A stretch of 64,000 nucleotides of DNA from Picochlorum sp. SENEW3 (GCA_034226945.1 CP120455.1:1054001-1118000), one strand, 5' to 3'. Counted from the first letter of the stretch, positions 1 to 60,529 are shown. The notes: generated from the letters alone by a model not told the origin. Numbers and translations are program-made.

Positions 1-1
1 T

Positions 2-3000
2 CAGGGTCTTGGAAAGACAGCTACAGTACTGTCTTTCATTCGATCATTAAGAAAAGACTTTGCATGCCATAAGCCAATCCTTATCATCGCACCCTCCTCT
101 TCTCTGGCATTTTGGGAGGGTGAATTCCTCCAATGGCTGGGAAATGACATTGATACCGTAACATATTCTGGCTCAGCAGTAGCAAGGAATATTTTGTTAG
201 ACCATGAACTGTGGCTATCTCCCTCAGCTTTGGATGGCAGGGTGGTACATAAAAAGACATTGAATGACAGGGTTCCTAAGTGTGATGTTGTTCTGACAAG
301 CCATGAAGCATTTGCATCAGACTCGGTTGAGCTGTCTGCTATGAAGTGGGAACTCGTTGTATTTGATGAGCGACACCGCATTCAAAGTGCTGCATTGAAA
401 GCTCACCAATTCATTAACGAGATTGACTCGGCACACAAAGTACTCCTCGGATGGCCATCACTGCCAAGCAATGTCCAGGAATTGATGGCCGAAGTTAGTT
501 TCATCAAGTCTCAGTACCAGAACCTCGAGGATCTACCTGGAAATCTCGATGAAGAGGAAGAGAATGTGCAAATTAAGGCTCTAAAAGCAGAATTGGAGCC
601 TGTGATGCTCCAACGGCCCAGATCTATAATTGGGGAAGTCATTGCACCTTCCTATGAAGTTAGAATACCTGTGAAGCTGAGAAAAGAACAGATAGAGTCG
701 TATAAATCTGTCCTTACAAAATCATATGAAGTTTTAGGGGATCCTAAAGCTAGCAGGTTCTCTGGGTACAGAGCTGTTCAACTCAGAGGTGTTGTGAGTG
801 ATCTTCGAGCTGTTTGCGCTCACCCTGGTATTGATAGTGGAGATTCTCTCGATGCCAATCGAATTCAACTCAAACATCAGGATGATCTTGATGAAGCTTT
901 GGGCTTGAGTGAGAAACTTGAGTGTTTTGACATGCTCTTGCAAGCAGAGAAATCTGTGAATAGACGAGTAGCAGTGTTTGCACATTCTTCAACAGTCCTC
1001 TCTCTCCTGAGTGAATGTATGAGAGTAAGGTTTGGTGAAGGAACCTATCGTACGATAACCTCCACAACGCCCTCATTAGATTGTCGCAAGGCAATCAACT
1101 CATTCAATGAAGATGAGTCACATGTATCGTTCATAGTAATGCACCCGATTGCTTGTGGTCTTGGTATGAGCTTAGAGAAATTGGATACAGTCATATTCTT
1201 CGATTCAGACTGGAGCGTGACCTCGGATATAACTGCCTTATGTCGAGCTAGAAAACTGGGAAAGGCTGACTCTCTTCGACTCTACCGCCTATATTGTGAG
1301 GACACGATAGAAGAACGTTTGATTGCTCTTGCCGAGAAAACAAAAGGAATGGAAATCGCACTTCGCCAGAGCCATGGCCGTGCATATTCTCGAGGGGCCA
1401 AAGTGCTGGACGAGATCTTACGGGCTGGCGTTGAGCAAATGTTTTCCGAGGATGCAGCAGGTGGGAAGGACCCTGAAATCAAGCAAGAAGAGCCTGATAG
1501 TCTAGAGTTGGCGAAGGATGGCAAACCAAATGATAAGGAGCAGAAAGAGTCAATTTCAAACGAATACTTCAGAGGGGATAACATCAAAATGTTGGTGAAT
1601 ACTGACCCTGCAGAGGCATTTGAGAAAAACAAGGGTGATGCCGCACAATGCAGACTGAATGAAGCATTACCTGGGACAACCGTTATCGACTTGACACCTC
1701 TAAAGCCAAATACAACTCCACAAGAACCACCGTCTGCAGAAGAAGAGTTGTCTGGAGAAGAAGGGGCTGATCCAGATGCTCATTCGAGGGCAGAGGCGGC
1801 GCTTCTTGCTTCCAAGTTTTGGTCTTCCCTTCTCCAGGAGTCCTGGCAAAAGTATCAAAAAGAACGAGGCGCGCTTCTTGATGCCAGTGTAGAAGATGAC
1901 GAGGAAGATGAAGAAGAAGATACCGGCCGAAGAATATCGGCGTCTTTGGGTGGTGTATCATATGAAGAAGAAGAGGACATACATAGAAGGAGAGGCAGAG
2001 GCCGGGGTCGTGGTCGGGGGCGAGGCATAAGGAGGCGTGGAGATGACGATGACTATGAGTCAGGATTCACCAAAAGGCGACGTCGAAGAGACAATCAGAA
2101 CCCAAATCTGACACCCGAGGCCCTGGAGTACATTGCAGAGTGGAACAGACAAACGGCTGTCATGAATGCAATCGCTGACCCGTCAACGGCAGAGGCTCTG
2201 ATTGCAAGGAATGCATTCGACAGGCTTGATGCGATGGGAACAGAACTCAATCTTCCCAAACACATCGTCGACCTCTCACACCAGTGTGCACAGATATTGC
2301 TGGTTATGCGGCCGTCTGAGGAAGCTCCATCTGACTTCCAGGACTATACTTTGGTTGCAGTCATAGCTGTTGCAACCTACCTTGGCCAGTACCCAATGGG
2401 AGAGGAACATGGCATACCAACATTGGCGCGAAAGTATGCTCAAGATTCAACGTCCCTTCAGCAGGTCTTTGAGTACATCATTGCATCCGTGAACAATTAT
2501 AGGGAGACGTATATGAGGATGCAGGCACTTCAAGAAGAAGGTGCGCTCGAGGAAGATTATAATGACAGGATTTTGAGGGATCGAGGCCATCCTACAGGAG
2601 GTTTAATGGCTGCTATGTCCGATTTAGATGGATTTGCAGCCAAACTGAATGCCATCCTCCAGGCAGATCTCCGGGCTGCTGCACTTGCGGCGGGTCCCCT
2701 CGAAATACCTGAATTGGATCTCACTGCAAATGCAAACGAAGAAAATGCGGCAGAGCTTGAATCACTATCTGAGAAGCTCCGAAGTATTCATGAGGAAATA
2801 GATCTGCTGGACAGAGTTCAGAACATTCGAGTGAAAAATATTCAGGATGAGTATCAGAGGTTCATGGAAAGAGTCAGGGCAAAAGCTCAGTCCGCCATCG
2901 ACCATGCCAATACAACATATAGTCAGCAACGAAGTGTGCTGATGTCAAGGCATGAAGCCATCTCCGCTCAAATAAAAAAGGACTATCCGCACCTGGCGCA

Positions 3001-3766
3001 AGAGCCACCAAGTCCACAAACAGTGGGAGCCAACACTGTCACAAAGTCTCCAGAAAATGGCAAAGATTTGCCCGTTTCTGCAGGTGGAGTAAATCCCATG
3101 AATATGCTTTCTCATTCAATGGCATCGCAGCTCTTAGCTCTGCAATCCCATTGGGCAGCTAACATGGCAGCTCAGGCGTCGGGAGATGGAAGCCAGCAGC
3201 AGTATCCATTCGGTCAAATGTTTCCTCAGCTCTCTCCAGCAGATTTCTCCGCACAGCTAGAACAGTATACCAAGATGCTTTCAGATCCAAATCAAGGTAC
3301 AGAACAGCAAAATAATGTCTTTCAGGCAATGGCACAAGCTGCTGCTGCTCAGCAGGAGGGTCAAACACAGCCCTCAAATGCTACAGGAAATGCTGAAGGA
3401 GACACAGGGAATGCGGCAGATCCTCCATCAAAGGCGAAATCTCCTCTTGAAATGATGGAAGAAGATTTCGATGCTGACATTGTCGCCGACCTAGGCAATG
3501 AGATTGACAATGATAAAACTCCTGGAGGAGAGGTAGACCCTGTACTGCCACAACCTGACCAACAGAATGAGTCCATCGATATCGAAATTGAAGATCCTCC
3601 TGCAGAGAATGCTACAAAATCACCAACGAAACAAGAGGGGAAATCCCTCGCTCAAGCCGAGAATGTCGTCAGGGTAAGTAGCCTGAGTGGGTGGATGCCG
3701 CAAGGCTCAAACCCCTCCTCTCCTCACGTTAAGCTGCCGCAGCAGCAAGAGCACCAAACGGGCTAG
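2..3766 (+). CDS. CHD/SNF2-family chromatin remodeller-like protein, 5'-truncated, with degenerate helicase motifs and possible MOM1-like C-terminus
   Basis: Frame is open from base 2 (QGLGKTATVLSF...LIIAPSSSLAFWEGEF = motifs I/Ia) into ORF 194..3766. It contains VVFDERH (motif II), LRAVCAHP, ACGLGMSL, DTVIFFDSDW, LYRLYCEDTIEERL and FWSSLL, then RG repeats, a coiled coil and a Q-rich tail. Confidence 0.85.
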   Translation, partial: QGLGKTATVLSFIRSLRKDFACHKPILIIAPSSSLAFWEGEFLQWLGNDIDTVTYSGSAVARNILLDHELWLSPSALDGRVVHKKTLNDRVPKCDVVLTSHEAFASDSVELSAMKWELVVFDERHRIQSAALKAHQFINEIDSAHKVLLGWPSLPSNVQELMAEVSFIKSQYQNLEDLPGNLDEEEENVQIKALKAELEPVMLQRPRSIIGEVIAPSYEVRIPVKLRKEQIESYKSVLTKSYEVLGDPKASRFSGYRAVQLRGVVSDLRAVCAHPGIDSGDSLDANRIQLKHQDDLDEALGLSEKLECFDMLLQAEKSVNRRVAVFAHSSTVLSLLSECMRVRFGEGTYRTITSTTPSLDCRKAINSFNEDESHVSFIVMHPIACGLGMSLEKLDTVIFFDSDWSVTSDITALCRARKLGKADSLRLYRLYCEDTIEERLIALAEKTKGMEIALRQSHGRAYSRGAKVLDEILRAGVEQMFSEDAAGGKDPEIKQEEPDSLELAKDGKPNDKEQKESISNEYFRGDNIKMLVNTDPAEAFEKNKGDAAQCRLNEALPGTTVIDLTPLKPNTTPQEPPSAEEELSGEEGADPDAHSRAEAALLASKFWSSLLQESWQKYQKERGALLDASVEDDEEDEEEDTGRRISASLGGVSYEEEEDIHRRRGRGRGRGRGRGIRRRGDDDDYESGFTKRRRRRDNQNPNLTPEALEYIAEWNRQTAVMNAIADPSTAEALIARNAFDRLDAMGTELNLPKHIVDLSHQCAQILLVMRPSEEAPSDFQDYTLVAVIAVATYLGQYPMGEEHGIPTLARKYAQDSTSLQQVFEYIIASVNNYRETYMRMQALQEEGALEEDYNDRILRDRGHPTGGLMAAMSDLDGFAAKLNAILQADLRAAALAAGPLEIPELDLTANANEENAAELESLSEKLRSIHEEIDLLDRVQNIRVKNIQDEYQRFMERVRAKAQSAIDHANTTYSQQRSVLMSRHEAISAQIKKDYPHLAQEPPSPQTVGANTVTKSPENGKDLPVSAGGVNPMNMLSHSMASQLLALQSHWAANMAAQASGDGSQQQYPFGQMFPQLSPADFSAQLEQYTKMLSDPNQGTEQQNNVFQAMAQAAAAQQEGQTQPSNATGNAEGDTGNAADPPSKAKSPLEMMEEDFDADIVADLGNEIDNDKTPGGEVDPVLPQPDQQNESIDIEIEDPPAENATKSPTKQEGKSLAQAENVVRVSSLSGWMPQGSNPSSPHVKLPQQQEHQTG

Positions 3767-3845
3767 AGTACGATTTTTTTGACGGATATAAATTACAAAT
3801 ATTGACACATGTTACTTTCCGAATACATTATATCAGACAGCATCT

Positions 3846-4435
3846 TTACGATCGACTTTCAACAACCCCATTCTCAGCCAAGTACGGAATTTCAGCTGCC
3901 AGCCAAGGAGCAAGCCCCAGGCAAAGAGCATGTGCAATGCCGAAATGAGGACTATTCTTCGCCCACAAAGGCTTAAAGTGCACCGTCAGACAAATTTTAC
4001 CTCCTCTATACATCTTCGCAGTCTTCCCTTCCAGCTCTGGTATCTCTATTTCTGGGGCAGTTACTGGATACGTTGCTGGTATATCGAATTGAAAGTCAAA
4101 CTCGTACTTGATCAGATCATGAATGTACCAGCACTTGCCTTTCCAATGCGTTCCTTCCTTATTACTCGGTTTAATCGTAAACCAGTCCAGATCAGTCGCC
4201 TTCCCAATCTCAATATATTTGATCAGTGAATTCAGTTCCTGCAGTGACCAGTTTCACATCGTCAGTCTGCCCAACAAATCTACTCTCCAGGCCATTAAAT
4301 GGTTTCTACGTTCACAATATGTACCTCTTTAAGCCTCTTTTGCCATTCATCTTTGTCCCTTGGGCCGGACTTGACCGTCAAAAGGGGAATCTTCTGAACA
4401 GCTTGTTTCGTGCGAGGATCCCAAGCTTCTGACAT
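3846..4435 (-). CDS. UFC1: UFM1-conjugating enzyme 1 (2 exons: 4435-4325, 4238-3846; 167 aa); not in ORF track
   Basis: Manual translation gives [45 protein letters not shown]...[27 protein letters not shown]...[48 protein letters not shown]. The 86-nt GT-AG intron is 4324-4239. The TAK motif and catalytic Cys are intact. Confidence 0.96.
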
Positions 4436-4626
4436 TCTAGGGTATAAATACAATACAATATCTCAAAATAATTGAAATTTACTGCTACTGAGGAGCAGTC
4501 TTGGATATCAAATCAAAATTCGAATTGTCTCAAAATGTCTTAGTAAGGAATTTCTCCCGATTATGAAAGCGACGCAAAACCCCTTTATATGTTTATCCAA
4601 ATCCTGCCTGATATTTATCTGTGCCA

Positions 4627-6148: not shown

Positions 6149-8593
6149 TTACACTCGTCTTCCTCCTGCTCGTGTAGATGCTCCTGTCCTCTTGTGTGTC
6201 GCCCTTCCAGCTGATGCGCCACCAGTTCTACCACCACGGGCTGCCATGCCCAAATTCAACTTTCCTTTCAACGCTTCTCTTCGTGCAGCAGCAGCTCCTT
6301 CAGTGTCACCGACTTTATTTTTGAGTTCGGACAACAGGAGCCAGAACTGCTCCATCATGTTGGCCCGTTGTGCGGCTCCAACACCACTCTGTGCAAAAAT
6401 CTTGGAGAGTGTCTGTGCATTCACACATGCCCCTTCAGCATAATCGATGGCAATTTCTGGATGGCCTTGTTGATCATACAAAATCGCAGTATCTCTGAGA
6501 ATTGCAATGCGATTCTGCAAAAGATCTGGCTCATACACAGAAATGGTGCTATCCATGATGTTCAAAACAGCTTCGTGTGCTTGAATGGCTTCCTCAAGAG
6601 CACCACGGGTTTTGCAATGCACACCGACGGCATACAATGCATTCATATGCTGAATGCTGTTTTCGCCATGGACCTTGATGGCAAGCTCAAGAGCATTGGC
6701 CAGAACCTCCTGTGCCTCCTCATGCTCTCCCATTGTATCCAATACACCTGCAGCATTCAACAAATTCCTCATGGCAAAGTGACGGGCAAGCTGTGGTGGC
6801 GTCAGCTTTTTCGTGTTTGCATCCTCATCTTCTGTCTGCGTGGGGGTCAATCCTGGAAGATCTGATCCCTCCTCTTCCTTCTTTTCCTCTTCCTTCTTTT
6901 CTTCTTCTGCAGTATCCCCCTTGGCTTCGAGGACATTTGCTTCAGCTTGCAACTCCTCAGCAGCTTTTAAAAGGAAATCAACGCACTCCCGTGTTCTCCC
7001 AGCCTTGGCAAGATATGCAGTATATTCATACTTGACCTGCTCTGTATTCTGCGACACGAGGGTAAAATCCTTCTTTGCTTGCTCGTACGCTGAAATATAT
7101 GTATCTCTCGTCGACTTGTGCTTTGATATATTACGAAGAACGTATGCATAATTCATATATGCCCTCACAGCACCACCCTTGCTGTCAGCCTGTCTGATGG
7201 CATCCAATGCCACAGCCAATGCAACTTTTGTCTCATTGATTTGCCTTTCAGCCACAAGCATATCAGACAGAGAGAATGCACATGCTGCTACCAATGTTGC
7301 ACGCACTTTACCATACCCTTCTGGCCCCAGGCACAAATCCATAGCAGCCTGCTGCTCTTTCAAACCTTGTTTGATTTTGTTGTTCTCCTTAATCAGCTTG
7401 TGTGCATGGATGCACATGTCCCTGATCTTTTTTTCGAGAGGCGTTAATTCCTCCTCCGTATCCTTTGGTGCCTCTGCAAACGACAAGGTTGGATGAGGAA
7501 TATCATCCAAATGTTCATATTGAGACTCCTCCTCATCCGCAGCCACAGGAGGCGTCTTATCCTCTCCCTTTGCCTTTCCACTCAACGTCTTTCCCCTCAA
7601 ATCTTCCAACGTAAACGTCGTTGCCATCACATCGACCACCTCTTCTTGCTGTGCTTCAGGTGCCTCAGGTGCTTCAGGTGCTTCAGCTTCTGTAACTGGC
7701 TCCTTCACATCTGTTGTAGCCGACTTCTCCTCCTCATCTTCCTCTGTTTTATTCTTCTTTGAATCATGCGATCCAAGAGCCGCACTCACCTCCTCCATCG
7801 CAGCAGCCTGCTTACTCTCCTCAATCACCTTCTCCGCATCCTGGGCAGCCTCCTCTGCCGCAACCTCTGCATCCACAATCTCAACCACCGACTCGATCGC
7901 CTCCTTCTTCATCAACTCAATCTGATCATCTACAATATCACTCACGTCCTCCGCACTATGCAATGTTCCCATGGCATCACCAGCTGCTGCTGCAGCAGCT
8001 GTTGCAGCAAGAGCAGCAGTAGCACTCCCCTTCAACTTCTTTGATTCCTCAGACTCGTGATCTTCCTTCTTCTCTTCCACCACTGGCTCCTCTGGCTTTG
8101 ATTCCTTCGCAACCACCATCTTCTCCTCCTCCTCAGGTGCTGCCTCTGGCGTCGTCTTCAGTGCGTGCTTCTTAGCTCTACGTGGAGGCAGTGCCGGGAC
8201 TCCACTACCACTCTTCTTTGTCCCCTCTACTGGACTCACAGGACTCTTCACCGAAGATGAATCAACATCAGACGATGCAACACTCCTAGGACGGCGTGGT
8301 GGCACCTTTCGAACGCCTCCCTGACGAGACCGATTCTTTACTCGACCAGAGGAAGACTCCACCGCACTCTTCTCCTTCGATCGCCTCGATTTCAACAGAA
8401 AACGTGCCCCAACACCAACAAGGACCCCAACAATCCCCGCTCCGACCATGATTGGAGCCATACCAACAGACCCACGGTGTCCGCCGTCCTGTGGTTCCGT
8501 TGAGGACGGGGATTTCTGCTCTCCTCTTACTCCTCCTAGCCTTTCCCCCTCAGGGCGACTCAATTCCTCAACATCACTATCCGATGTAGACAT
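6149..8593 (-). CDS. N-terminally membrane-anchored acidic protein with C-terminal TPR-like repeats
   Basis: 814-aa ORF with one hydrophobic segment (IMVGAGIVGVLVGVGA) followed by basic residues, a long E/K/A-rich region, and kinesin-light-chain-like helical repeats (e.g. NALYAVGVHCKTRGALEEAIQAHEAVLNI). Confidence 0.7.
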   Translation of the reverse strand: MSTSDSDVEELSRPEGERLGGVRGEQKSPSSTEPQDGGHRGSVGMAPIMVGAGIVGVLVGVGARFLLKSRRSKEKSAVESSSGRVKNRSRQGGVRKVPPRRPRSVASSDVDSSSVKSPVSPVEGTKKSGSGVPALPPRRAKKHALKTTPEAAPEEEEKMVVAKESKPEEPVVEEKKEDHESEESKKLKGSATAALAATAAAAAAGDAMGTLHSAEDVSDIVDDQIELMKKEAIESVVEIVDAEVAAEEAAQDAEKVIEESKQAAAMEEVSAALGSHDSKKNKTEEDEEEKSATTDVKEPVTEAEAPEAPEAPEAQQEEVVDVMATTFTLEDLRGKTLSGKAKGEDKTPPVAADEEESQYEHLDDIPHPTLSFAEAPKDTEEELTPLEKKIRDMCIHAHKLIKENNKIKQGLKEQQAAMDLCLGPEGYGKVRATLVAACAFSLSDMLVAERQINETKVALAVALDAIRQADSKGGAVRAYMNYAYVLRNISKHKSTRDTYISAYEQAKKDFTLVSQNTEQVKYEYTAYLAKAGRTRECVDFLLKAAEELQAEANVLEAKGDTAEEEKKEEEKKEEEGSDLPGLTPTQTEDEDANTKKLTPPQLARHFAMRNLLNAAGVLDTMGEHEEAQEVLANALELAIKVHGENSIQHMNALYAVGVHCKTRGALEEAIQAHEAVLNIMDSTISVYEPDLLQNRIAILRDTAILYDQQGHPEIAIDYAEGACVNAQTLSKIFAQSGVGAAQRANMMEQFWLLLSELKNKVGDTEGAAAARREALKGKLNLGMAARGGRTGGASAGRATHKRTGASTRAGGRRV

Positions 8594-18624: not shown

Positions 18625-19168
18625 ACTTCCACACTACTCTATTGGTACCTAACCAACAGCTAAGAAAATTTAATGACCGATTGCAACGATGGAGAACCGC
18701 AGAACTAAAGGCAAAGAGATCCTGTTGAGAGTTCGTTACTCCCAGTCGGGCCGATGCGAACTCTCCAGACAATATTTGACGGGTTAAAATGATTAGATTT
18801 ACATTAAATTATGATTTAATGACCATGCAGTGCATATCACTCTGGTTTTTGGGAGCGGTTGATATGCAGTCCGCAGCTGCGTCGGTCTGCCGGGGGCGCC
18901 TCGACCCAGTTGCCATGGATGGCTCAGCCATTGGGTACTGTCGTGGCCACGTGAGGATTGAGAGGCAAAATAGAAATTTTGACTGATTCAACATCATATC
19001 AGCTTGGTAGAATGACAACAAAAGTTGGAGTCACCCGGAAAGGAATCACGCACTTTATTTTTTTTGGGTGGTACATTATGGACGCTTGATTAGAGACGAT
19101 GGAAACAACGTCTATCCATCAAAGATTTTATCTTGAATGAATTTTCATCAAGCAAGAGTAGGGGCGTG

Positions 19169-21625
19169 ATGGAGAAGAGGAAGCCCATTCCGTCTTGGAA
19201 GCGGCTTCGGAGGGAAACATACCTCCTCCTCCTCCTCTTGCTAGCAACAGCTTTATCGACATTCATGTGGCTTGACCCTGTTGGTGATGTGGATCTATCG
19301 GGGTTGATGATGAGCTCCAATGATGTTCCAGAAGAAGAAGAAGGAGAGCCTGATATACTGTCTTTTGTGGATCCGTTCATTGGAACTGGGGGTCATGGGC
19401 ATACATTCCCTGGTGCAGCAGTGCCTTTTGGTATGGTACAAGTCAGTCCGGATAACGGTGTGAAAGCATTGGATTGGGCTTCTGGATATCATTATTCATC
19501 AAATAAAATCATTGGGTTTTCTCATACGCATCTTAGTGGGACGGGGATGCCTGATTTGATGGATGTATCGCTGATGCCATCATGTGTGATGGCAAATCAA
19601 AATGATGGATTACAGGAGGTGATTGAGGGGCTATTACTGAAGAAAACGAGTTTTAAAACGCCCGAACTGATGTCACAATATCCAAAAAAGTTTGACAGGG
19701 ATGCCTTTCAGTCGCTCATTGAGAACACCATGTCTCATGACAATGAACACGCGCAGCCTGGATACTATGCAGTCTTGCTGGATAAGCATGATATTCATGT
19801 CGAGCTTGCAGCCACCGAGGTGGCAGGAATGCATAAATATTCACAACATGATGGATCAGAGTGTGGTATACCTGTTGTATCTCTTGATGTATCGACCTGC
19901 TATTCTACAGGCACTCCAATAGAAGGCAGCATCAGAATTCTATCAGACCGCAGTGTTACTGGCAGTCGGAAAGTAAACGCATGGGCTTCTCATAGACAAA
20001 TCTTCTACCACATTATGTTTTCGAAACCATTTCTCGATGTGGCTATGTTACATGGCTCGGACTCGCTTCAATGGGATGGGTGTAACGGTGATGGATGCCA
20101 ATTGGCGTTCTTCTCATTTGACCACCTGGACGACTTGAAAATCATCGTAGGTCTCTCCACAGGAAGCGAAGCAGGCGCTCAAATGTCAGCTGAAGCAGCA
20201 TATGCACGTTTTGGGTTTGATCAAGAGAGTATGGTCAAAGCAGCGCAGGATACGTGGAGAAATACTATTGGCAGAATCCAGATACAAACTCAAAATCTCA
20301 CACAAAAGACAATCTTCTACACGGGCATGTATCACGCTCATTTGGCTCCTGTACTTCATTCTGATCTGAATGGATCTTTCTGGGGACCAGATTCTAGTTC
20401 TCATACGATACAGAATCACACGTATTATTCGACATTGTCACTATGGGATACCTTTCGAGCGCAGAATGCTCTCCTTTCTCTCTTGCAGCCACAACGCGCC
20501 AGAGACATTGCGTTGACCTTATTGACACATGCATCTCTTTTCAGGAACATTCTTCCAATATGGACAATGGGAGGAAAGGAAACAGATACCATGCCAGGGT
20601 ATCACGCAGTCTGCATACTAGCAGAGGCTCTGCAAAAAGGCTTGATGTCACTTGATGAAGCTCGCATGGCATTGGATGCAGCAGTTGCAACCTCGCGCAA
20701 ACAGACTGCAGCTCTCGAAGACTATGGGTACATTCCGTATGATATGGAGTATGAGTCTGCCAGCAAGACATTAGAATATGCGTATGATGATTGGTGTGTG
20801 TCCCAACTTGCCAAGGCTGTTGGCGACTCGGCGTTGGAAAACCAGTATGCCAACAGATCCATGTTTTACAAAAACATCTTTGACTCGAAAACAGGTTTCA
20901 TGCGACCGAGAAACAAACAAGGTGGATTCATGAAACGATTTGATCCTCAAAGATCAGAGCACGAGCTGGGACATTTCACAGAAGGGACAGGCTGGCAGTA
21001 CCTCTGGTTTGTCCTCCATGACATCCCAGGTCTCGCTACTCTCCTTGGAGGCCCTCGTGCCATGGAGGACAAATTAGATGAGTTTTTCTTCCCAAAAACC
21101 GCAGCATCTATTCATGGAAAGGATGTGTCCATGGACATCACAGGTATTTTAGGACGATATGCCCATGGCAATGAACCAGGCCATCACACTCTCTTCCTAT
21201 ACAATCTTCTCGGATCTCCAAGGAAAACACAGCATCTAGGGCATGTCATCACAAATTTATTTTATTCTACAGGACATGATGGGATCATAGGAAACGAGGA
21301 TTGTGGCCAAATGTCAGCATGGTTCATTTTCACATCCATGGGATTGTATCCTATCAATCCAGCAGACGGCAAATACCATATCACAAGCCCCCTCTTTGAC
21401 TCGGTCCGCATTCGTACATCTCCATTACACACCAGCAAAGATGTATACTTTACAATTCATGCTCCAGGAGCTGCTTCCAAGAATATGAAGTACATCAAGA
21501 GTGCAAGGCTCAACAATAAGCCTCTCTCCATGGAAGCAGGTTCATTCTTTCTGACACATGATGACCTTGTCCGAGGTGGCACACTGGATCTAGAGATGAT
21601 GCATGGCGATACTCCATTCTTCTGA
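19169..21625 (+). CDS. Glycoside hydrolase family 92 alpha-mannosidase with N-terminal membrane anchor
   Basis: VDPFIGTGGHGHTFPGA..PFGMVQVSPD, GFSHTHLSGTG, SLWDTFRA, SKTLEYAYDDW, FTEGTGWQY, YAHGNEPGHH and GNEDCGQMSAW; intronless. Confidence 0.95.
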   Translation: MEKRKPIPSWKRLRRETYLLLLLLLATALSTFMWLDPVGDVDLSGLMMSSNDVPEEEEGEPDILSFVDPFIGTGGHGHTFPGAAVPFGMVQVSPDNGVKALDWASGYHYSSNKIIGFSHTHLSGTGMPDLMDVSLMPSCVMANQNDGLQEVIEGLLLKKTSFKTPELMSQYPKKFDRDAFQSLIENTMSHDNEHAQPGYYAVLLDKHDIHVELAATEVAGMHKYSQHDGSECGIPVVSLDVSTCYSTGTPIEGSIRILSDRSVTGSRKVNAWASHRQIFYHIMFSKPFLDVAMLHGSDSLQWDGCNGDGCQLAFFSFDHLDDLKIIVGLSTGSEAGAQMSAEAAYARFGFDQESMVKAAQDTWRNTIGRIQIQTQNLTQKTIFYTGMYHAHLAPVLHSDLNGSFWGPDSSSHTIQNHTYYSTLSLWDTFRAQNALLSLLQPQRARDIALTLLTHASLFRNILPIWTMGGKETDTMPGYHAVCILAEALQKGLMSLDEARMALDAAVATSRKQTAALEDYGYIPYDMEYESASKTLEYAYDDWCVSQLAKAVGDSALENQYANRSMFYKNIFDSKTGFMRPRNKQGGFMKRFDPQRSEHELGHFTEGTGWQYLWFVLHDIPGLATLLGGPRAMEDKLDEFFFPKTAASIHGKDVSMDITGILGRYAHGNEPGHHTLFLYNLLGSPRKTQHLGHVITNLFYSTGHDGIIGNEDCGQMSAWFIFTSMGLYPINPADGKYHITSPLFDSVRIRTSPLHTSKDVYFTIHAPGAASKNMKYIKSARLNNKPLSMEAGSFFLTHDDLVRGGTLDLEMMHGDTPFF

Positions 21626-23861: not shown

Positions 23862-26800
23862 CTACTGAGACCATTCTGCTGGATCCCATCCATGGACTGC
23901 CCCCCAATCATATGCTTTCTGGAGCATCTCATCAAAGGTGTTTTCTCGCACGAGGGACTGGTGCATCCTATACAGTTTCAATGCAGCCACAGCATCTTCA
24001 ATCGAGTCATGGGTGTCGCCCTGAATGGAAGATTTCAAAAAGAATGATGACAAGAATTTCAAGCTTAGCCTTCGTCCTCGTCCAGAATAGTACAGGTCCA
24101 TCGTATCGATGATTTGATCCTGAGGAACAACAATATTAAGCATTTTGAAATCCTTTTTGAGACCATGGCCAACAAATAAGCAGCCAATATCGATCATGTA
24201 TCGTAGTTTGAGATATGCCTTCCTCAATGTTGTCAAATGCCTCTGTGAATGTTCCATGTCTAAATCTCCGGGCAACAGTCCACTGTAACGAGTCAAGTGA
24301 TCATACACTGGCTCTACAGAACGTATATAATCATCAATGCAAGGAGTACCAGCCAAAGGCCCATCGCCTCGCACGAGACTCACCCTTCCAAGACCCAAGC
24401 GAGATGTTCTCGACCAATCATCCTGTTCATTCAAGACCATTTTTTCCGGTGCCGAATATGCAACAAACTCGGCATCCAGAGCAAATATATCGCCTTTTTT
24501 CGGTAGATCAAGTTCGGTGAACGGCACAAATGTTTTCGGTAACAGATTTGCCTCGGCCACCTTTTGAATTGGGGGCTCATTGCACAATTCAATAAATCTA
24601 CTTTCTGAGAGCACACTGACAGCTGCAGGCAGCTCCTTCCCCTGAACATTCTTCAGATACGATACCTTTGTAAAGAACAAAAGCACTGGAACCTTCTGCG
24701 CATCAAAGGTTCGTCGAATCTCGTTGATGGCGCAGGGTGAAATGACAAAGTCATTGAATGTCATCCACGTGAAGCCCAAGTCGCCTGATTTCTCCAGGTT
24801 GTGAGAGGTATCATAATATGAGGGTACATTTATATGTGCTATTAAATGACCTTCGTATGATTTTCCCATCTCCTCAGCCTCGTCCTTATCGTAGACATAT
24901 GAAATGACTCCGGTTAAGAGGAACAGGTCACGATAATGGCCTTCCGGAACTGGACCAAGTTTCTTGCTCAACTCTTCCAAGGTATCCGCCTGTTCTACCG
25001 ATGTGGACCCAGCTACATGACTGAAGGTAATCGATATCGCCAAAGGAAACGAACCAATTGTGGAAAAGTCCCAAAATTTTGACAATCCTCTATCTTCAAC
25101 ACCTGTGTAAGCAATCAACACTGTTGGCAGCCTTGTTGGTGAACGCTCCTGCCTCACTGGCTGATATCTCACATTCTCATCAAACCACGCTTTCATTTCC
25201 GAAGACGTGTGTAACGATTTTTCCAAAATTGTCGAAAATTGTATCGAAAAGATCTCGACGTCACCCGGATATTTCAGCTCGAGCTGGAATGTGGAAATCT
25301 CTTGCTCCTTTGGAGCCAATTTGTGTGTAAGACATGTCGTCTTCTGTTTTTGTCGCAAGCAGAATATATCCTGAATACAATGTCTATCATCTGAAGCATT
25401 TTTGTTGTCAATTTCCTCCCTATCCATCCTCGTGATAATGAATCGACACAAGCGTTCTATCCTTCTGACAAGACTCTTGTCTTTTTGTGCCTCGACAGCA
25501 ATATCCACAGATCCTCTTTCCCCTTTCACGCCTTCCAAAAGACCTAGAGCGACAGCTTCTGAAGTCTGTCTCAGAGCCCTCAAAAGGTTTGACGCCTGCA
25601 CATATCATCACGATCAATCTACGTATCCATGATGCATCAAAAAAAATTCCAAACGCGTGTGACAGTACCTGACAAACCTCCCCTTGCGACGTTGACAGCA
25701 TATGAAACAGCAAAGAAACCTCGTCTAACAATGTGAACTCTTTATCCACCTCTGGAGCATGACCTAACGCAAAATCCCTCAATGGCCTGGTGAAGTACAA
25801 CACCTGAATCAATGCATTCATGTAACAATTTGCCAGACCATTCTCCAGACCTGAAAATGGAGTCGCATTATGAGCTTTAAAATCAAACTCTTCAAACCTA
25901 GTCCCTTTCTGCTGCCGAATAACAGTCCTTCTAAACTTTTTCGGAATTACAATACCACCTTCCTTCTCTCGCCTCGATGCCCTCTCATGGATGGCAGCCT
26001 CAGTCTCTTTTCCTGTCCGCCTGTGTTGGCTCCTTTTATTTCGTATACTATACACCCCCGCCGCTGATTTCCCTGGAGGGTTATTCTCATCGTATTTTGG
26101 GTTTTTAATATACGTGACAAAATCAGTAACTTTGCCAGAGGCCAACAACGAGGCATCAACAACTCTTGGAGGAAGCCCAACAGACATGACTTCATCCTGG
26201 CCAACAGACGATGCATAATATTCATCCAGACCGATCGGATATACGGGAGCCGTCGAAAAACTAGTATCTTCATCTATATATGGAACGATGCTCCTATCAA
26301 TAGGGTGCGCATATTCAGGAACAACCCCAGTTGCAACAACAGGCTCCACAGAAGCTGACCACAGGTGCACGTATCCATTCGTTCCTCCAAACACCATGCA
26401 GTCCCCACTTGCGCTAATATCACACGCAGCCAACATATCTCCTCTCATATCGATAAAATGAGTCTCCGTGGTGGTGCTGGTGACACCAGATGTATCCATC
26501 AGAGAAAACATGCCCTTTGCAGAACAAACCAAAAGTGTTGACCTGAGGGTGGGATGAAACTTTAGCGCAACTGGCCCTTCGTTGAAAGGCAATGTAGAAA
26601 CAGCTTTTAATCCCATGCGAGCATCAAATACCCGCACCACAGGCTCCAAGACTGGCCTGTCAGCACGTCCTCCATACCCAGCACTTGCAATTAGATTCCC
26701 CGCCGATTCAAGTGCTACAAAACCGTGCGCATACACTTTCGACTCTGAAACCAAACCATCCCCAGAGAATTTTCCTTTCCGTGGATCAAACACAGAGAGA

Positions 26801-27459
26801 TGGCCCTCTGGAGAAGCCAACGCCACCTGTCCACTACCCAACGGACCAGTCATTGCTACAACTCCATGCTGCGTCGAATACGACGCCCCTTCCCTTCCTC
26901 GAGTAACATCATACATGAATACACCTCCACCATGCCGACCCATCAGAACCTGATGATTCCAATGCTGATACATAAATCCACCTAGGTCACCAACCTGGTC
27001 CAAGTAACACATCCTCGATGCACCCCCAGACATGTGAATACTAAACTGTCCAGCACTTAAACTAGCCACGCCACCACCCAAGGATTCCATTTGAACAATA
27101 GACTCTTTCGAATGATCGCTTACACAGCTATAATACTCCATGGTTCGACAGATATGCTGAAACAGAGATCCATGATGACTTCCAGTCCACACAGCCTCCT
27201 CCGACACATCAAAACACATCGCAGATGTACCATCATATGAGTATCCATCATGTATACATGCCAGCCCGACTTCTCTCAACCTTCCATCATGCTCTGCCTG
27301 ATACAACTCTTGCCCACCAGGACCAGACCCATAATAGTTCTCGTACGAGTATCCCTCCGATGCGTCCGCACCATGTTCCGAGTAATAATATCCATCATCT
27401 TGATAATATTGCTCATACGCATCAGGGTGTTGAGGCGCACCACCAAATTGCTCTGCCAT
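23862..27459 (-). CDS. PAN2: PAN2 poly(A) deadenylase catalytic subunit (exons 27459-25669, 25595-23862)
   Basis: WD40-like N-terminus, pseudo-UCH domain (GLENGLANCYMNALIQVLYF) and DEDD exonuclease (ALDAEFV, FVGHGLKKDF, HDSIEDA). A 73-nt intron at 25668-25596 joins GEVCQ|ASNLLRAL. Confidence 0.95.
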
Positions 27460-56928: not shown

Positions 56929-59859
56929 TTATTTTAATTTCTTACTCTTCAGTCTTGAATCTAAAAAGCTCTGCCTCATCGATACTTCACTCTTATAGCT
57001 GATACAGCTTGGCACGATGAGACACACCAGTACCTGGTACACCAGCAAATTGGACAGACACGTGGCTGTGGAAATGTCTCCAAAAGCAGCCGAGCACATG
57101 CTTGAATTCAAGAGGGCCGTCATTGGTAACATTGCTGTCAAGCAGATGACAAGAGCCTTGAAGCGAGGCCGCAATCCAAACGTCAGCATAATAACTTGCA
57201 AAAGCGAGCTCCCTTGGATAAGTGCGGAACTAGGACTCGGTGATGACCCATATGTTAACACATGAAGCATTGTATGCAGGAGCGTGAATCCCACACAAAG
57301 CCATTCCCTATGATTGGTGTACATCTCCTGGCTCCAAAAACTTGAACCTACAACTGCAGTACTGTACAGTAACAGTATGATTGCAGCTATCCAGGCTAGC
57401 ATTGACGTGGAATACTCCCCAGTGTACAATGCCAACCCTTGAGAAAACATGGTCATGGCAAGGACTGACAGGTCAATTGTCACCCGCCTACGATTAAACC
57501 AGACCTTGTACTGCTCCTCGAGATACTGCGATGAATACTCCAAAAAGACGCCCATTTCTTTCCCTTCAGAATCCTGCTCCTGGCCAGATATGGTAGTTTT
57601 GGATCCTGAAACCCTATACCATGTCTTCTTGCAAAGAGTGTCCTTTTCTTGAGCAGAAAGAAGTTCATTCTTCTCAGCTCCAACACTAATGCGACCCTCA
57701 ATTTCTTCTGCATTACCTACCAGTGTTGCTAGTGCAATGGGAGATGTTCCATCAATAGACTTGGCACCTTCCCAGCCATCAATAGCATCAACGCAGTATT
57801 GAGTCAACAGTTCTGCGGCATGCCCCTTGTCTTTCACCATGACGGCCAAATGAAGAGCTGTTGTCTTCCCTCTCCCTTCCCTACAGCATTCCAGCGACAA
57901 TCCATACCGCTGCCCCCAAGATAAGATGCATTGCAATACTTCCACACTTTGACTCTTCACAGCATGTTGAAGCAGAGTCATTCCTGTTGATTCCATGCAG
58001 GACTCCTCAATGGAAGACATAAGGACCTGTTTGTCTCTATTGCTGCACAGATACGCTTCCAACGCACTTTCCAATAGATGGTGCATCTTTCTCTGTATCA
58101 ATAACGGGATCAATGCTCGCGCACTCTCTGAAGGAGACTTTGGAGCCCTCTTATATTCCCTTGCAACATCCTCATGAGACATTCCACCGGCAAGCTTATC
58201 CTTTGCTTCCATAATCATTCCAATTCTATACAAAATAGTTCGTAAACATGCATTACGGCCCACTCCAAGCATTTTAACTTCATCAGCCTCCTCTGCATTC
58301 GTGCACAGGACCACCAATTGCGCTGCAGTTGTGTATGGACCTCTATTCAACTCAACCTGAAGCACGCCTGGCTTCACACAACCAAACACTGAGATGAATA
58401 GACTTTGTGATTTATCATGCGTTTCAATTGACATCAATTGAGTTTCAAGATGCTCGCCTCGTGATCTGACAAACACATTGTCACTGCTTCGCACACGCTC
58501 AGATTCCACAATAATCTCCACTGGCTCTCTCTGCGCAACAATTGCCAAAGATGATACCGATGTTAACGCTGGAAGAAGATTTCCAGCATTTCTCAATGAG
58601 AATATCTGTCGTATATTGTTTCCGTCAGTATATACCAAGTGCTCATCAATCTGCAATATAGCATTTTTTGTAATTGGAGCTCCGTCTGCCCTTGCTGTAC
58701 TTCTCAAGAATTTCTCAGCCTTCTCCCTCACATCCATACATGTACTATACTTGTGCTTCTCAACAATGGCATCAGCCTGAAGATACACACACCCCGGTCG
58801 CATATAACCCTCCACAGCATGTGCATCACACAATCCTTCCAGTCCAGACGCAACACCTGGTGTCAAATCCGCAGGGGTTACCTTGTCCAGCTTGCATGCA
58901 ACACTGAACAATTCTTGGTCCCATTCTGGATGACTCAAAGGATTGTCCACTGACCTCAAGATCTCCTGGCAAAAATCAGCACAACCTGGTAGCACCTTTC
59001 CTCCAGCCCCTACTGACATAATATCATTATTAAAAGTACTGTTCGGTTGGGACTCCCTCCTTGTAGGACCACACAACTCATCTAAATCCCAAGAATTCCT
59101 TTCATCAGAAAGGTATAATATATCAGCATGCATATCGCTTTGCTGTTCCACTGATGAGACGACAGGATCCAAATACGAATCCTGCAACAGATCCAAATCC
59201 GCATTCACCGGAAGCATGCTCTCAGGACTTGAGATCTCCGCACAACTGCTTTGATCTGTCGTTGGAACATATCCTTTCACACTATCCGACTTTCTACTCT
59301 GAGAATCCTTCTCATCAGTACTTGTCGACACATCAGACTCTTTCGAACTATGGAGCACAGAATCAAGACTGTTCCCTCCCTTCCTCATCATACCCAATTT
59401 TGCCTTTGCTTTCGCCTCCATCGCTGCAAGCTTTTTATCAGATATATTGTACTTTTGCCTCAGTGCATCCCTATCAATGTATCCGCGAGACTTCAACATG
59501 TGCTGAATCTCTCGCAACCTCTTCCTCCGCACATTATGCTTCTCCAACCGGGCAATACACGATTTTTTATTCCCATCAAACTCTGATAAAGCATGAAACT
59601 TGCCGCACTGCTGGCAAAATCGCTTCTTCTCCCCTCCAACAATGGAGCACCTTGCCTTTTGATGATCAGGGCACACCCGATACCGTGTGTAGTACTTCTT
59701 CTTCAACCCCACTAGGTTCACATGACATCCATCCGCCTGACACTCCACATTCACTTGATCTACAGTGCTAGAACTGTCCTTTCCACCGCCTTCTCTCGGC
59801 TCTGCAACTGTAGAAAATCGATGCAGGACCCAGTCTTCCTGCTTCCAAGAATCACCCAT
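56929..59859 (-). CDS. SBP-domain (SPL) transcription factor with ankyrin repeats and multi-pass C-terminal membrane region
   Basis: CQADGC...YRVCPDH...RFCQQCGKFH.LSEFDGNKKSC..RL..HN.RR; KL..VTPADL...EGYMRPGCVYL; TLLQHAV and TALHLAV; several C-terminal hydrophobic helices. Confidence 0.92.
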   Translation of the reverse strand: MGDSWKQEDWVLHRFSTVAEPREGGGKDSSSTVDQVNVECQADGCHVNLVGLKKKYYTRYRVCPDHQKARCSIVGGEKKRFCQQCGKFHALSEFDGNKKSCIARLEKHNVRRKRLREIQHMLKSRGYIDRDALRQKYNISDKKLAAMEAKAKAKLGMMRKGGNSLDSVLHSSKESDVSTSTDEKDSQSRKSDSVKGYVPTTDQSSCAEISSPESMLPVNADLDLLQDSYLDPVVSSVEQQSDMHADILYLSDERNSWDLDELCGPTRRESQPNSTFNNDIMSVGAGGKVLPGCADFCQEILRSVDNPLSHPEWDQELFSVACKLDKVTPADLTPGVASGLEGLCDAHAVEGYMRPGCVYLQADAIVEKHKYSTCMDVREKAEKFLRSTARADGAPITKNAILQIDEHLVYTDGNNIRQIFSLRNAGNLLPALTSVSSLAIVAQREPVEIIVESERVRSSDNVFVRSRGEHLETQLMSIETHDKSQSLFISVFGCVKPGVLQVELNRGPYTTAAQLVVLCTNAEEADEVKMLGVGRNACLRTILYRIGMIMEAKDKLAGGMSHEDVAREYKRAPKSPSESARALIPLLIQRKMHHLLESALEAYLCSNRDKQVLMSSIEESCMESTGMTLLQHAVKSQSVEVLQCILSWGQRYGLSLECCREGRGKTTALHLAVMVKDKGHAAELLTQYCVDAIDGWEGAKSIDGTSPIALATLVGNAEEIEGRISVGAEKNELLSAQEKDTLCKKTWYRVSGSKTTISGQEQDSEGKEMGVFLEYSSQYLEEQYKVWFNRRRVTIDLSVLAMTMFSQGLALYTGEYSTSMLAWIAAIILLLYSTAVVGSSFWSQEMYTNHREWLCVGFTLLHTMLHVLTYGSSPSPSSALIQGSSLLQVIMLTFGLRPRFKALVICLTAMLPMTALLNSSMCSAAFGDISTATCLSNLLVYQVLVCLIVPSCISYKSEVSMRQSFLDSRLKSKKLK

Positions 59860-60529
59860 GGTCACACCGGTACGTCGCCAACAGATATCAGCACCTTCTT
59901 CTTCACGTGTGTATCAAATTCACTGTATGAAAACACATGCACATATCGACCCTGCATGCACAAGACCAAAACGAGGTCAAACTACTATTTCCGGTACCAA
60001 CAAGACTCTTCCCATCCAACCCATCCTCCGACCGGAAACAATTCACGAAAGCAGGAGGCCAAAAAAGTACCACCCTCCGGCAGCCGGACAACCGTCTCCT
60101 GCTCTGTGTATATTCCTAGGCAAAACGCCTATAGTATCCAACTGAAATATATAAATGTCGTCGCGCAATACCAGCAATGAATTCCTCAAGAGGACGAGAG
60201 CAACGCGACCACTACCCCCAACACGTATGAGGTTGGCTGAACAGAATCGCAATACCCTACCTTTCTCACTCGCAAAATGACAAGAATTGCAAATAATAAA
60301 TGACGGAATAAATGATGGTGTCAGTTTCGATACGCCTCGTGCCGTCGTTTTCCCAGCAACTTGGAGCGTGAGCAAGAAGAGCCCTCATGATGACGTCAGC
60401 GAGGTCTGTAATTAGTACATATTATAATACATCTATATACGGAGATACACCTAGACTCACAAATACCCCGCTGTATCTCTCTCAGGTTCACATACCATTC
60501 GTATAAAATCATTCAAAAGCATTAGTATC

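Follow-up and report, generated by a model that had tools for sequence, protein, structure and literature searches.

The 64,000-nucleotide (nt) stretch of the Picochlorum sp. SENEW3 genome analysed here (GCA_034226945.1 CP120455.1:1054001-1118000), hereafter the window, opens at positions 2..3766 of the plus strand with the 3′ part of an intron-less gene for a CHD protein of subfamily II. Within the PKR1/MOM lineage, the gene represents a branch new to chlorophytes that combines a MOM1-like architecture with its own set of readers. Our reading, which we hold at a probability of about 0.5, is that it is a chlorophyte member of the PKR1/CHR4-MOM lineage built to a MOM1-like design, whose C-terminal module is probably homologous to the CMM1 and CMM2 domains of MOM1. 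According to the available text of two reports, MOM1 is unusual among plant epigenetic factors: although derived from a CHD protein, it silences independently of its motor and without altering DNA methylation, and it has been traced to an origin within land plants (PMC2507757, PMC9113485). The window protein and its homologues, referred to below as the family, form a conserved chlorophyte group that shows MOM1 traits in its motor lineage, in two tail folds that occur in the same order and in a tendency to lose catalytic residues. The family belongs to the PKR1/MOM lineage and lacks the marks of the MOM clade proper, namely the Pfam MOM1-like domain, a PHD finger and CMM3.

The frame at 2..3766 (+) runs uninterrupted through 1254 codons to a stop at 3764-3766 and is open at its 5′ end. 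The whole gene comprises about 1,900 codons; its last two-thirds lie in this frame, and its 5′ part lies upstream of the window. Seven full-length homologues of 1789-1908 amino acids (aa) (P0002-P0008; P numbers denote compared proteins) are 54-63% identical to the window protein over 98-99% of its length. In run X13, a contig of 4119 nt (depth 182) spans window positions 1-3910 without a joint; it stops at 3910 and continues into adapter sequence, which marks 3767..3910 (+) as the probable 3′ untranslated region. In a neighbouring X13 contig, position 4237 is followed directly by 4324. The 86 nt left out have CT..AC ends when read on the plus strand and so correspond to a GT..AG intron on the minus strand, and X13 therefore behaves as RNA. 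Parts of the CHD gene are also covered in two marine metatranscriptomes, and the gene was found in RNA libraries and in several independent runs, all of this evidence being assembled contigs that show presence and not expression level; gaps in the metatranscriptome cover of the gene (X18 and X19) carry no weight. The off-consensus ATPase motifs described below might be taken to indicate a decaying pseudogene or a functionless assembly artefact. We consider this extremely improbable, given the open frame of 3765 nt, the seven full-length homologues, a segment that is 88% conserved, 165 representative matches to the tail and the recovery of the gene from RNA.

The N-terminal part of the window protein is an SNF2 motor in which both lobes are present. 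Pfam places SNF2-rel_dom at aa 2-276 (5..829, +; 1.7e-29, 103.3 bits, cut-off 24.9) and Helicase_C at aa 305-417 (9.9e-8, 32.7 bits, cut-off 23.5), and the alignment with Chd1 supports both lobes, the second of which continues beyond aa 417 (914..1261, +). The remaining ~800 residues gave no significant Pfam match. At E≤0.01, 81 SNF2 chains in the PDB were matched; the closest solved proteins were yeast Chd1 (176 bits, 8.6e-51) and human CHD4 (174 bits), followed by ISWI (~143 bits) and Snf2 (~115 bits). The canonical SNF2 motifs are named I-VI, and their residues have catalytic and coupling roles. Judged by sequence, the window protein retains motif I and, in motif II, the DE pair, and it departs from the canonical form in motifs III, V and VI. 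In lobe 1, Walker A is intact as GLGKT (aa 2, nt 5-19, +), motif II is DERH (aa 122, nt 365-376, +), with DERHRIQS replacing DEAHRLKN of yeast Chd1, and motif III is LLGWP (aa 148, nt 443-457, +), with LLGWPSLPS replacing LITGTPLQN. In lobe 2, motif V is ACGLG (nt 1154-1165, +), with HPIACGLGMSL replacing STRAGGLGINL, and motif VI is DITALCRARKLG (aa 409, nt 1226-1261, +), the wider segment reading DITALCRARKLGK where Chd1 has DLQAMARAHRIGQ; its first arginine is kept, the second is replaced by lysine (RARK) and the glutamine by threonine. Sequencing noise does not account for these changes, since all eight close family members carry them. The strings on which the original prediction of a degenerate CHD-type ATPase drew (GLGKT, DERH, LLGWP, DITALCRARKLG, FWSSLL, RLDAMG, APSDFQDY and ATYLGQ) were all found in place, and a CHD-type ATPase with altered motifs is borne out by the Chd1 alignment and by the motif states of 13 family proteins.

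Among these 13 proteins, Walker A reads GKT in nine, GKS in two and GRA in two, and motif II reads DERH in eight and DERN, DDRE, DLRG, DARS and DGRA in one each. The TGTP form of motif III occurs in none of them. Walker A GLGKT and the Walker B DE are both intact in 9 of the 13, the window protein included. The Walker A lysine is replaced in two proteins and the Walker B glutamate in four, with both lost in P0032 and P0033, and all four keep the tail. These losses in distant members indicate that ATP-driven DNA translocation is unlikely to be conserved family-wide. The tail is conserved more strongly than the motor: among the eight close members, the block at aa 700-850 is 88% identical, compared with 69% and 73% for the two ATPase lobes, and relative to the Prototheca homologue it is 48% identical, compared with 24-27% for the motor lobes. 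This block ranks highest in the whole protein, followed by the helix after it and the long helix.

These data bear on whether the protein could be a still-working ATP-dependent remodeller, that is, a chlorophyte PKR1/CHR4 orthologue whose motifs III, V and VI are unusual but functional and whose tail is an accessory. The motor may still be functional in the clade to which the window protein belongs, where Walker A and B are intact and the lobes are 69-73% identical and hence constrained; the first motif VI arginine is retained, and the altered motifs are fixed in the clade rather than drifting. As an account of the gene, however, we find a remodeller of this kind quite unlikely, because no member carries a TGTP motif III, the second arginine and the glutamine of motif VI are replaced (residue roles being taken from general knowledge), the tail persists in the four proteins that have lost a Walker lysine or glutamate, and the tail is better conserved than the motor.

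Reference proteins for placing the motor were collected with residues 470-1130 of P0002 (the chromodomain-motor region), which returned 101 proteins at E≤1e-10; a first, word-indexed search with the window protein had given 22 matches with no canonical CHD among them, because the motor shares few exact words with those proteins. The best matches outside the family came from Riccia (308 bits), Marchantia (305), Gonium (289), Physcomitrium (CHROMATIN REMODELING 4, 268) and a streptophyte alga (262), and lower scores were obtained for Mi-2 (223), CHD1 (~203), CHD7 (198) and ISWI (~186). The PKR1/CHR4-type matches carry PWWP, PHD, chromodomains and DUF1087 according to Pfam. The motor was cut from 70 proteins and 13 near-redundant or very long rows were removed (seven CHD1, three ISWI, one CHD7, one SNF2 and one other), leaving 57 rows and 485 columns for a maximum-likelihood tree (IQ-TREE, LG+C20+F+G4 with posterior mean site frequencies, PMSF; support given as ultrafast bootstrap, UFBoot, over the approximate likelihood-ratio test SH-aLRT). 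The family falls in subfamily II with Mi-2, PKR1 and MOM (84/96) and, within it, in a PKR1/CHR4-MOM clade that excludes Mi-2, CHD1, CHD7 and ISWI (99/96); MOM and the family group at 93/71, and the family with the Gonium protein at 100/100. An approximately unbiased (AU) test rejected a position of the family outside Mi-2, PKR1 and MOM (difference in log-likelihood 14.8, p 0.0097), the group having been named after the tree was seen. When MOM and the five longest family rows were removed (46 rows, quick search), the family still paired with PKR1 (SH-aLRT 95), and its position is therefore not simply an attraction to the long MOM branch. The tree does not resolve the branching order among PKR1, MOM and the family. 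A phylogeny of the SNF2 domain had been named as a check that could place the ATPase in another SNF2 subfamily; it places it with PKR1/CHR4 and MOM. The description of the protein as an intermediate between CHD3 and MOM1 overstates the case, as the family forms a chlorophyte branch of its own within the PKR1/MOM group of the tree.

The upstream part of the gene was read through homologues. In four of these, Pfam finds zf-CW, PWWP and chromodomains ahead of the motor, with the tandem chromodomains of CHD proteins seen as two Chromo stretches in P0002, P0005 and P0009 and one in P0006, and no PHD finger in any of the four. The suggestion that upstream sequence be inspected for PHD and chromodomains thus held for the chromodomains and not for the PHD finger, the readers being zf-CW and PWWP instead. 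Alignments of the family profile with Chd1 and CHD4 (~320 bits each) begin in the chromodomains and extend across the motor. The complete order in the homologues is zf-CW, PWWP, two chromodomains, SNF2 motor, an FW..LL motif, acidic and arginine-glycine (RG) tracts, a cyclin-box domain, a helix of ~80 residues and short C-terminal motifs. The PKR1-type proteins P0174, P0175, P0177 and P0178 from bryophytes and a streptophyte alga also have PWWP, ahead of PHD and chromodomains; the chlorophyte family shares the PWWP, and zf-CW replaces the PHD finger. Named members of the family are P0173 of Prototheca wickerhamii and, by the ATPase tree, P0176 of Gonium pectorale, annotated merely as 'hypothetical protein' or 'Chromo domain-containing protein'. 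When 1.84 billion representatives were searched by phmmer with aa 700-1060, 165 proteins matched at E≤0.001, and most of them are short fragments. Among the 150 of these that were listed, five are at least 994 aa long and four contain SNF2 (P0007, P0032, P0033 and P0054). In Pfam terms, P0032 and P0033 have zf-CW, PWWP, chromo and SNF2, and P0054 has SNF2 and Helicase_C only; the remaining long match, P0122 (994 aa), is matched in the long helix at its N-terminus and is without a Pfam family.

Behind the motor, the tail begins with the FW..LL motif FWSSLLQESWQKY (1817..1855, +; FWSSLL at aa 606, nt 1817), of the type found after the ATPase in the DUF1087 region of MOM and Mi-2 proteins. Pfam DUF1087 gave no match in the window protein, its tail segments or the four homologues, although this Mi-2/MOM-type motif is present. 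The most conserved segment follows as a predicted single cyclin-box (TFIIB-like) fold at aa ~726-838 (2177..2515, +), which contains the strings RLDAMG (nt 2222), APSDFQDY (nt 2324) and ATYLGQ (nt 2372) and is the positional counterpart of MOM1 CMM1. An AlphaFold2 model of aa 700-1000 from a 42-row alignment is all-helical with a predicted local distance difference test score (pLDDT) of 88. When it was compared with 48,161 PDB representatives by VIA-align, almost every one of the 32 highest-ranked chains had a cyclin fold. In Foldseek, neither this model nor the CMM1 model described below reached E≤0.001 with any entry; its top rows for the family tail model are the same fold families as those of VIA-align, its rank order being used solely alongside the latter. 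Together, these rankings identify the helical block as a single cyclin box, and the predicted model has the five-helix topology of that fold. A SANT-SLIDE reading of the block was dropped after the fold searches. Pfam cyclin or TFIIB models did not match the tail segments at E≤10, the four tail segments gave only weak coiled-coil noise at that threshold (UPF0242, PRONE), and a search of the ESM Atlas with aa 700-1000 yielded no usable match.

The same fold is predicted for MOM1. Among the matches to P0002 were six homologues of MOM, including two annotated as 'Helicase protein MOM1' or 'MOM1-like', and all six carry Pfam PF25029 (MOM1-like domain) about 250 residues after Helicase_C at 152-166 bits. 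The position of PF25029 matches CMM1 as given in the available text of Caikovski et al. 2008 (PMC2507757). A CMM1 model built from P0221 and the five other MOM rows has five helices (pLDDT 77.5, predicted template modelling score, pTM, 0.69) and matches the same PDB chains as the family block, so that both model as single cyclin-box folds. As a by-product of this comparison, CMM1 of MOM1 is predicted to be a cyclin box.

The second tail element is a long helix at aa 916-994 (2747..2983, +), the positional counterpart of CMM2, which is predicted to form an antiparallel homodimer with hendecad-like periodicity. The long coiled coil that had been placed at about 2745-2975 agrees well with this single modelled helix. 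For aa 859-1000, the predicted homodimer reached an ipSAE of 0.58 (runs 0.56, 0.59 and 0.58), compared with 0.00 for the best control, with contact agreement of at least 90% and a partner pLDDT of at least 75. In calibration, 21 of 30 solved one-chain pairs from microbes and 17 of 29 from eukaryotes passed the dimer mark, whereas no single chain did (0 of 23 and 0 of 30, respectively). The closest contacts (230-281, 241-274, 245-270 and 248-267) have a near-constant sum of 511-515, from which it follows that the helices of the model are antiparallel and centred near aa 955. Hydrophobic power in the family helix is 31 at a period of 3.6, 30 at 3.667 and 5 at 3.5 (shuffle 95th percentile 25.5), and the alignment of MOM CMM2 gives 32, 27 and 5 at the same periods. 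The available text on the solved CMM2 describes an 82-residue helix that forms an antiparallel dimer on four hendecads, dimerization being required for silencing (PMC3276543).

Homology of the two tails was assessed by profile comparison. When the family tail profile was aligned by hhalign to whole MOM proteins (2231 columns), the only match lay on CMM1, over 89 columns and helix on helix (E 0.21). With trimmed alignments, the block matched CMM1 at P 0.014 over 88 columns (reversed control 0.6) and the helix matched CMM2 at P 0.066 over 57 columns (reversed control 0.26); crossed pairs, with block and helix swapped, gave P 0.52 and 0.69. A divergent subset of the family gave P 0.0054, no column shuffle of 90 reached the observed score, and the tails of PKR1 proteins, used as a control, gave P 0.46-0.95. 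In a set of 266 proteins, a hidden Markov model (HMM) of CMM2 ranked 27 family proteins (E 0.0015-0.083) and an HMM of CMM1 eight (E 0.029-0.77) ahead of the first unrelated protein. Conversely, the HMM of the family helix found the MOM protein P0221 at its CMM2 (E 0.0077), the next, unrelated protein lying at 1.4. As these profile and HMM results stay below accepted thresholds, the sequence evidence is suggestive and not significant. Homology is argued mainly from a combination of four shared traits, namely lineage, order of the elements, the pair of folds and an unusual type of coiled coil.

A series of observations weighs against our reading. At the level of sequence, PF25029 did not match the whole protein at E≤1, the tail segments at E≤10 or the four homologues at E≤0.1, and the MOM1/CMM2 structure 3VEM was absent from PDB sequence searches at E≤10 made with the protein tail or the tail profile, which listed noise only (CstF-77, ribosomal S2 and a kinetochore coiled coil). 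The HMM of the family cyclin block matched no MOM among the 266 proteins, the hhalign probabilities were 0.3-7%, and with single-sequence templates the six MOM proteins ranked 1, 12, 22, 27, 46 and 67 of 107. Two of 90 block shuffles reached the observed hhalign score (null mean 16.3), a shuffle that was not treated as a clean null because it keeps real local signal. The cross-matches of the helix could stem from shared periodicity alone, and the dimer score may owe something to solved look-alikes. In architecture, the two tail elements are ~70 residues apart in the family and ~470 in P0221, PKR1 tails have no cyclin-box/long-helix module, none of the five long phmmer proteins among the 150 listed of 165 has a PHD finger or a MOM1 domain, and a CMM3-like C-terminus was not seen in the family, whose termini, judged by eye, are unlike the MOM ending ...CLSDD(D/E). 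The motor, as set out above, may still work in the window's clade. In the phylogeny, a grouping of MOM with PKR1 to the exclusion of the family was not rejected by the AU test (p 0.19), long branches and an odd composition mark MOM as well as several rows of the family, and the tree contained no PKL or PKR4 sequence. Finally, the available text of Trujillo et al. 2022 nests MOM inside embryophyte PKR1, reports PKR1 in four chlorophyte species and MOM from none of the Chlorophyta, and states that its CMM HMMs found nothing in Chlorophyta (PMC9113485).

One alternative is convergence, in which the tail is a lineage-specific invention: a chlorophyte PKR1-type CHD gained a cyclin box and a dimerizing helix, its likeness to MOM1 arose independently, and its role may differ. 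Cyclin boxes and coiled coils are very common folds, every sequence-level test stayed below accepted thresholds, spacing and N-terminal readers differ from those of MOM, PKR1 tails are without the module, and the published account (PMC9113485, as far as its available text goes) derives MOM from within embryophyte PKR1 with no chlorophyte CMM matches. We nevertheless regard convergence as rather unlikely, since two branches of a small clade would each have gained this pair of folds, identically ordered and at the same site after FW..LL, which is a large coincidence; moreover, the best profile match in the 2231-column MOM profile lands on CMM1, helix on helix, and weak reciprocal helix HMM matches go with the shared, unusual periodicity of 3.6-3.67. 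On the present models and profiles, homology of the tail to CMM1 and CMM2 appears a shade better than an even bet. The original prediction had invoked CMM1/CMM2-like domains in MOM1-like order and spacing. The folds, the predicted antiparallel dimer and the order from FW..LL through the helical domain to the long helix agree with the MOM homologues; the spacing (~70 versus ~470 residues) and similarity at standard sequence or profile thresholds do not.

If the tail is homologous to CMM1 and CMM2, the module originated before the split of chlorophytes and streptophytes, and the absence of the module from PKR1 tails would then require an early duplication with later losses. We tentatively suggest, at somewhat less than even odds, that a MOM1-type tail module was already part of a PKR1/MOM-lineage CHD in the common ancestor of green algae and land plants, and that motor decay came later and independently in MOM1. 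Chlorophytes would then have kept the module in a protein that recognizes histone methylation by means of zf-CW, PWWP and chromodomains and whose own motor is decaying.

With regard to function, the MOM1-like reading envisages a scaffold on chromatin that acts as a dimer. Its readers (zf-CW, PWWP and chromodomains), together with the motor-derived fold, would hold it on methylated nucleosomes; the hendecad helix would pair two copies in antiparallel fashion in vivo; and the cyclin box and the short motifs NPMNMLSHSMASQLLALQ, LEMMEEDF and RVSSLSGW would recruit partners. The motor in the window's clade may still bind or slowly hydrolyse ATP, and distant members would have no normal ATPase, with remodelling activity presumably lost. 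This mode of working would resemble that of MOM1, in which a decayed CHD motor and CMM1 accompany a dimerizing CMM2 platform, and a role in silencing may likewise be envisaged.

The gene has further features. A basic, RG-rich tract, RRRGRGRGRGRGRGIRRRG, lies at 1985..2041 (+) behind an acidic run, as seen in the sequence and the family alignment. The conserved helix SDLDGFAAKLNAILQADL (aa ~864-887; 2591..2662, +) contacts the long helix in the predicted dimer. In the family alignment, three conserved segments lie towards the C-terminus: the short motif NPMNMLSHSMASQLLALQSHWAAN at 3092..3163 (+), the acidic motif LEMMEEDF at 3446..3469 (+) and the C-terminal motif RVSSLSGW at 3671..3694 (+).

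Downstream of the CHD gene, a minus-strand transcript with a GT..AG intron lies at 4063-4472, between the CHD gene and a sugar-transporter gene, and has no long open reading frame (ORF) assigned. Two genes on from the CHD gene, 6149-8593 (-) encodes a protein of 814 aa that contains a TPR_12 repeat as well as extended low-complexity stretches, acidic or rich in alanine. At 19133-21625 (+) lies a gene of glycosyl hydrolase family 92 (GH92, alpha-mannosidase-like) with a very strong Pfam score (2.1e-146); this family is mostly bacterial and fungal, and the origin of the gene in a green alga might merit attention. A PAN2-like gene at 23862-27459 (-) consists of two overlapping ORFs, with PAN2_N and the start of UCH_1 in 25420-27459 and the rest of UCH_1 and RNase_T in 23862-25601, a layout that would fit either a frameshift or a short intron, introns being otherwise scarce in this region. 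At 56929-59865 (-), the window encodes an SBP-box (SQUAMOSA promoter-binding) transcription factor of 978 aa, a class that to our knowledge is restricted to green plants and that, together with the Prototheca and Gonium family members, fits a chlorophyte host.

In searches of full-text literature, we found no description of the family, of a cyclin-box CMM1 or of green-algal CMM-like domains; the supplement of Trujillo et al. may list members as chlorophyte PKR1. Two possibilities follow: the MOM1-type module predates its accepted origin by hundreds of millions of years, or one clade has evolved it twice. If the former is true, the functional tail of MOM1 is not an invention of land plants, and MOM1-type, remodelling-independent silencing could become open to study in fast-growing unicellular algae. 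The algae concerned are easy to grow and edit, and both readings are testable.

Among known systems, the Mi-2/CHD3-CHD4 proteins share with the algal family the tandem chromodomains, the SNF2 motor, an FW/YW..LL motif followed by a basic patch and membership of subfamily II (84/96). The algal family differs in being without PHD, CHDNT, DUF1086 and CHDCT2 in Pfam, and the tree separates Mi-2 from the group of PKR1, MOM and the family (99/96). PKR1/CHR4 proteins are closer: they are the best matches outside the family (262-308 bits), they are its sister or neighbour in all trees, also without MOM, and their bryophyte and streptophyte-alga members have PWWP ahead of the chromodomains. PKR1, however, has a canonical ATPase score (SNF2-rel_dom ~263 bits, compared with 103 in the window protein), a PHD finger where the algal family has zf-CW, Pfam DUF1087 and no cyclin-box/long-helix module. 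Relative to the TFIIB/cyclin superfamily, the algal domain is a single repeat with 9-16% identity and no Pfam cyclin or TFIIB match, and it is fused to a chromatin remodeller, a kinase or TBP context not being known. ZCWPW1-type proteins are characterized by a zf-CW and PWWP reader pair, and the algal homologues have zf-CW followed by PWWP at their N-terminus; on the evidence of sequence, the algal pair differs in being fused to a CHD protein, in the part encoded outside the window.

Set beside the MOM1 clade, the algal family matches neither the Pfam MOM1-like domain nor CMM2 significantly in sequence, has zf-CW and PWWP as readers where the MOM rows P0221 and P0228 have PHD, has no acidic C-terminus of CMM3 type and, in the window protein, retains intact Walker A and B; its host is a chlorophyte, whereas MOM is reported from embryophytes only in the available text of PMC9113485 and PMC2507757. 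On the other hand, both groups derive from CHD proteins, carry chromodomains and have an SNF2 motor that is eroded or dispensable, and in both an FW..LL motif after the motor is followed by a domain that models as a cyclin box and then by a helix of ~80 residues. An antiparallel hendecad dimer has been solved for MOM1, as described in the available text of PMC3276543, and is predicted for the algal family, and the ATPases of both groups lie in one clade together with PKR1.

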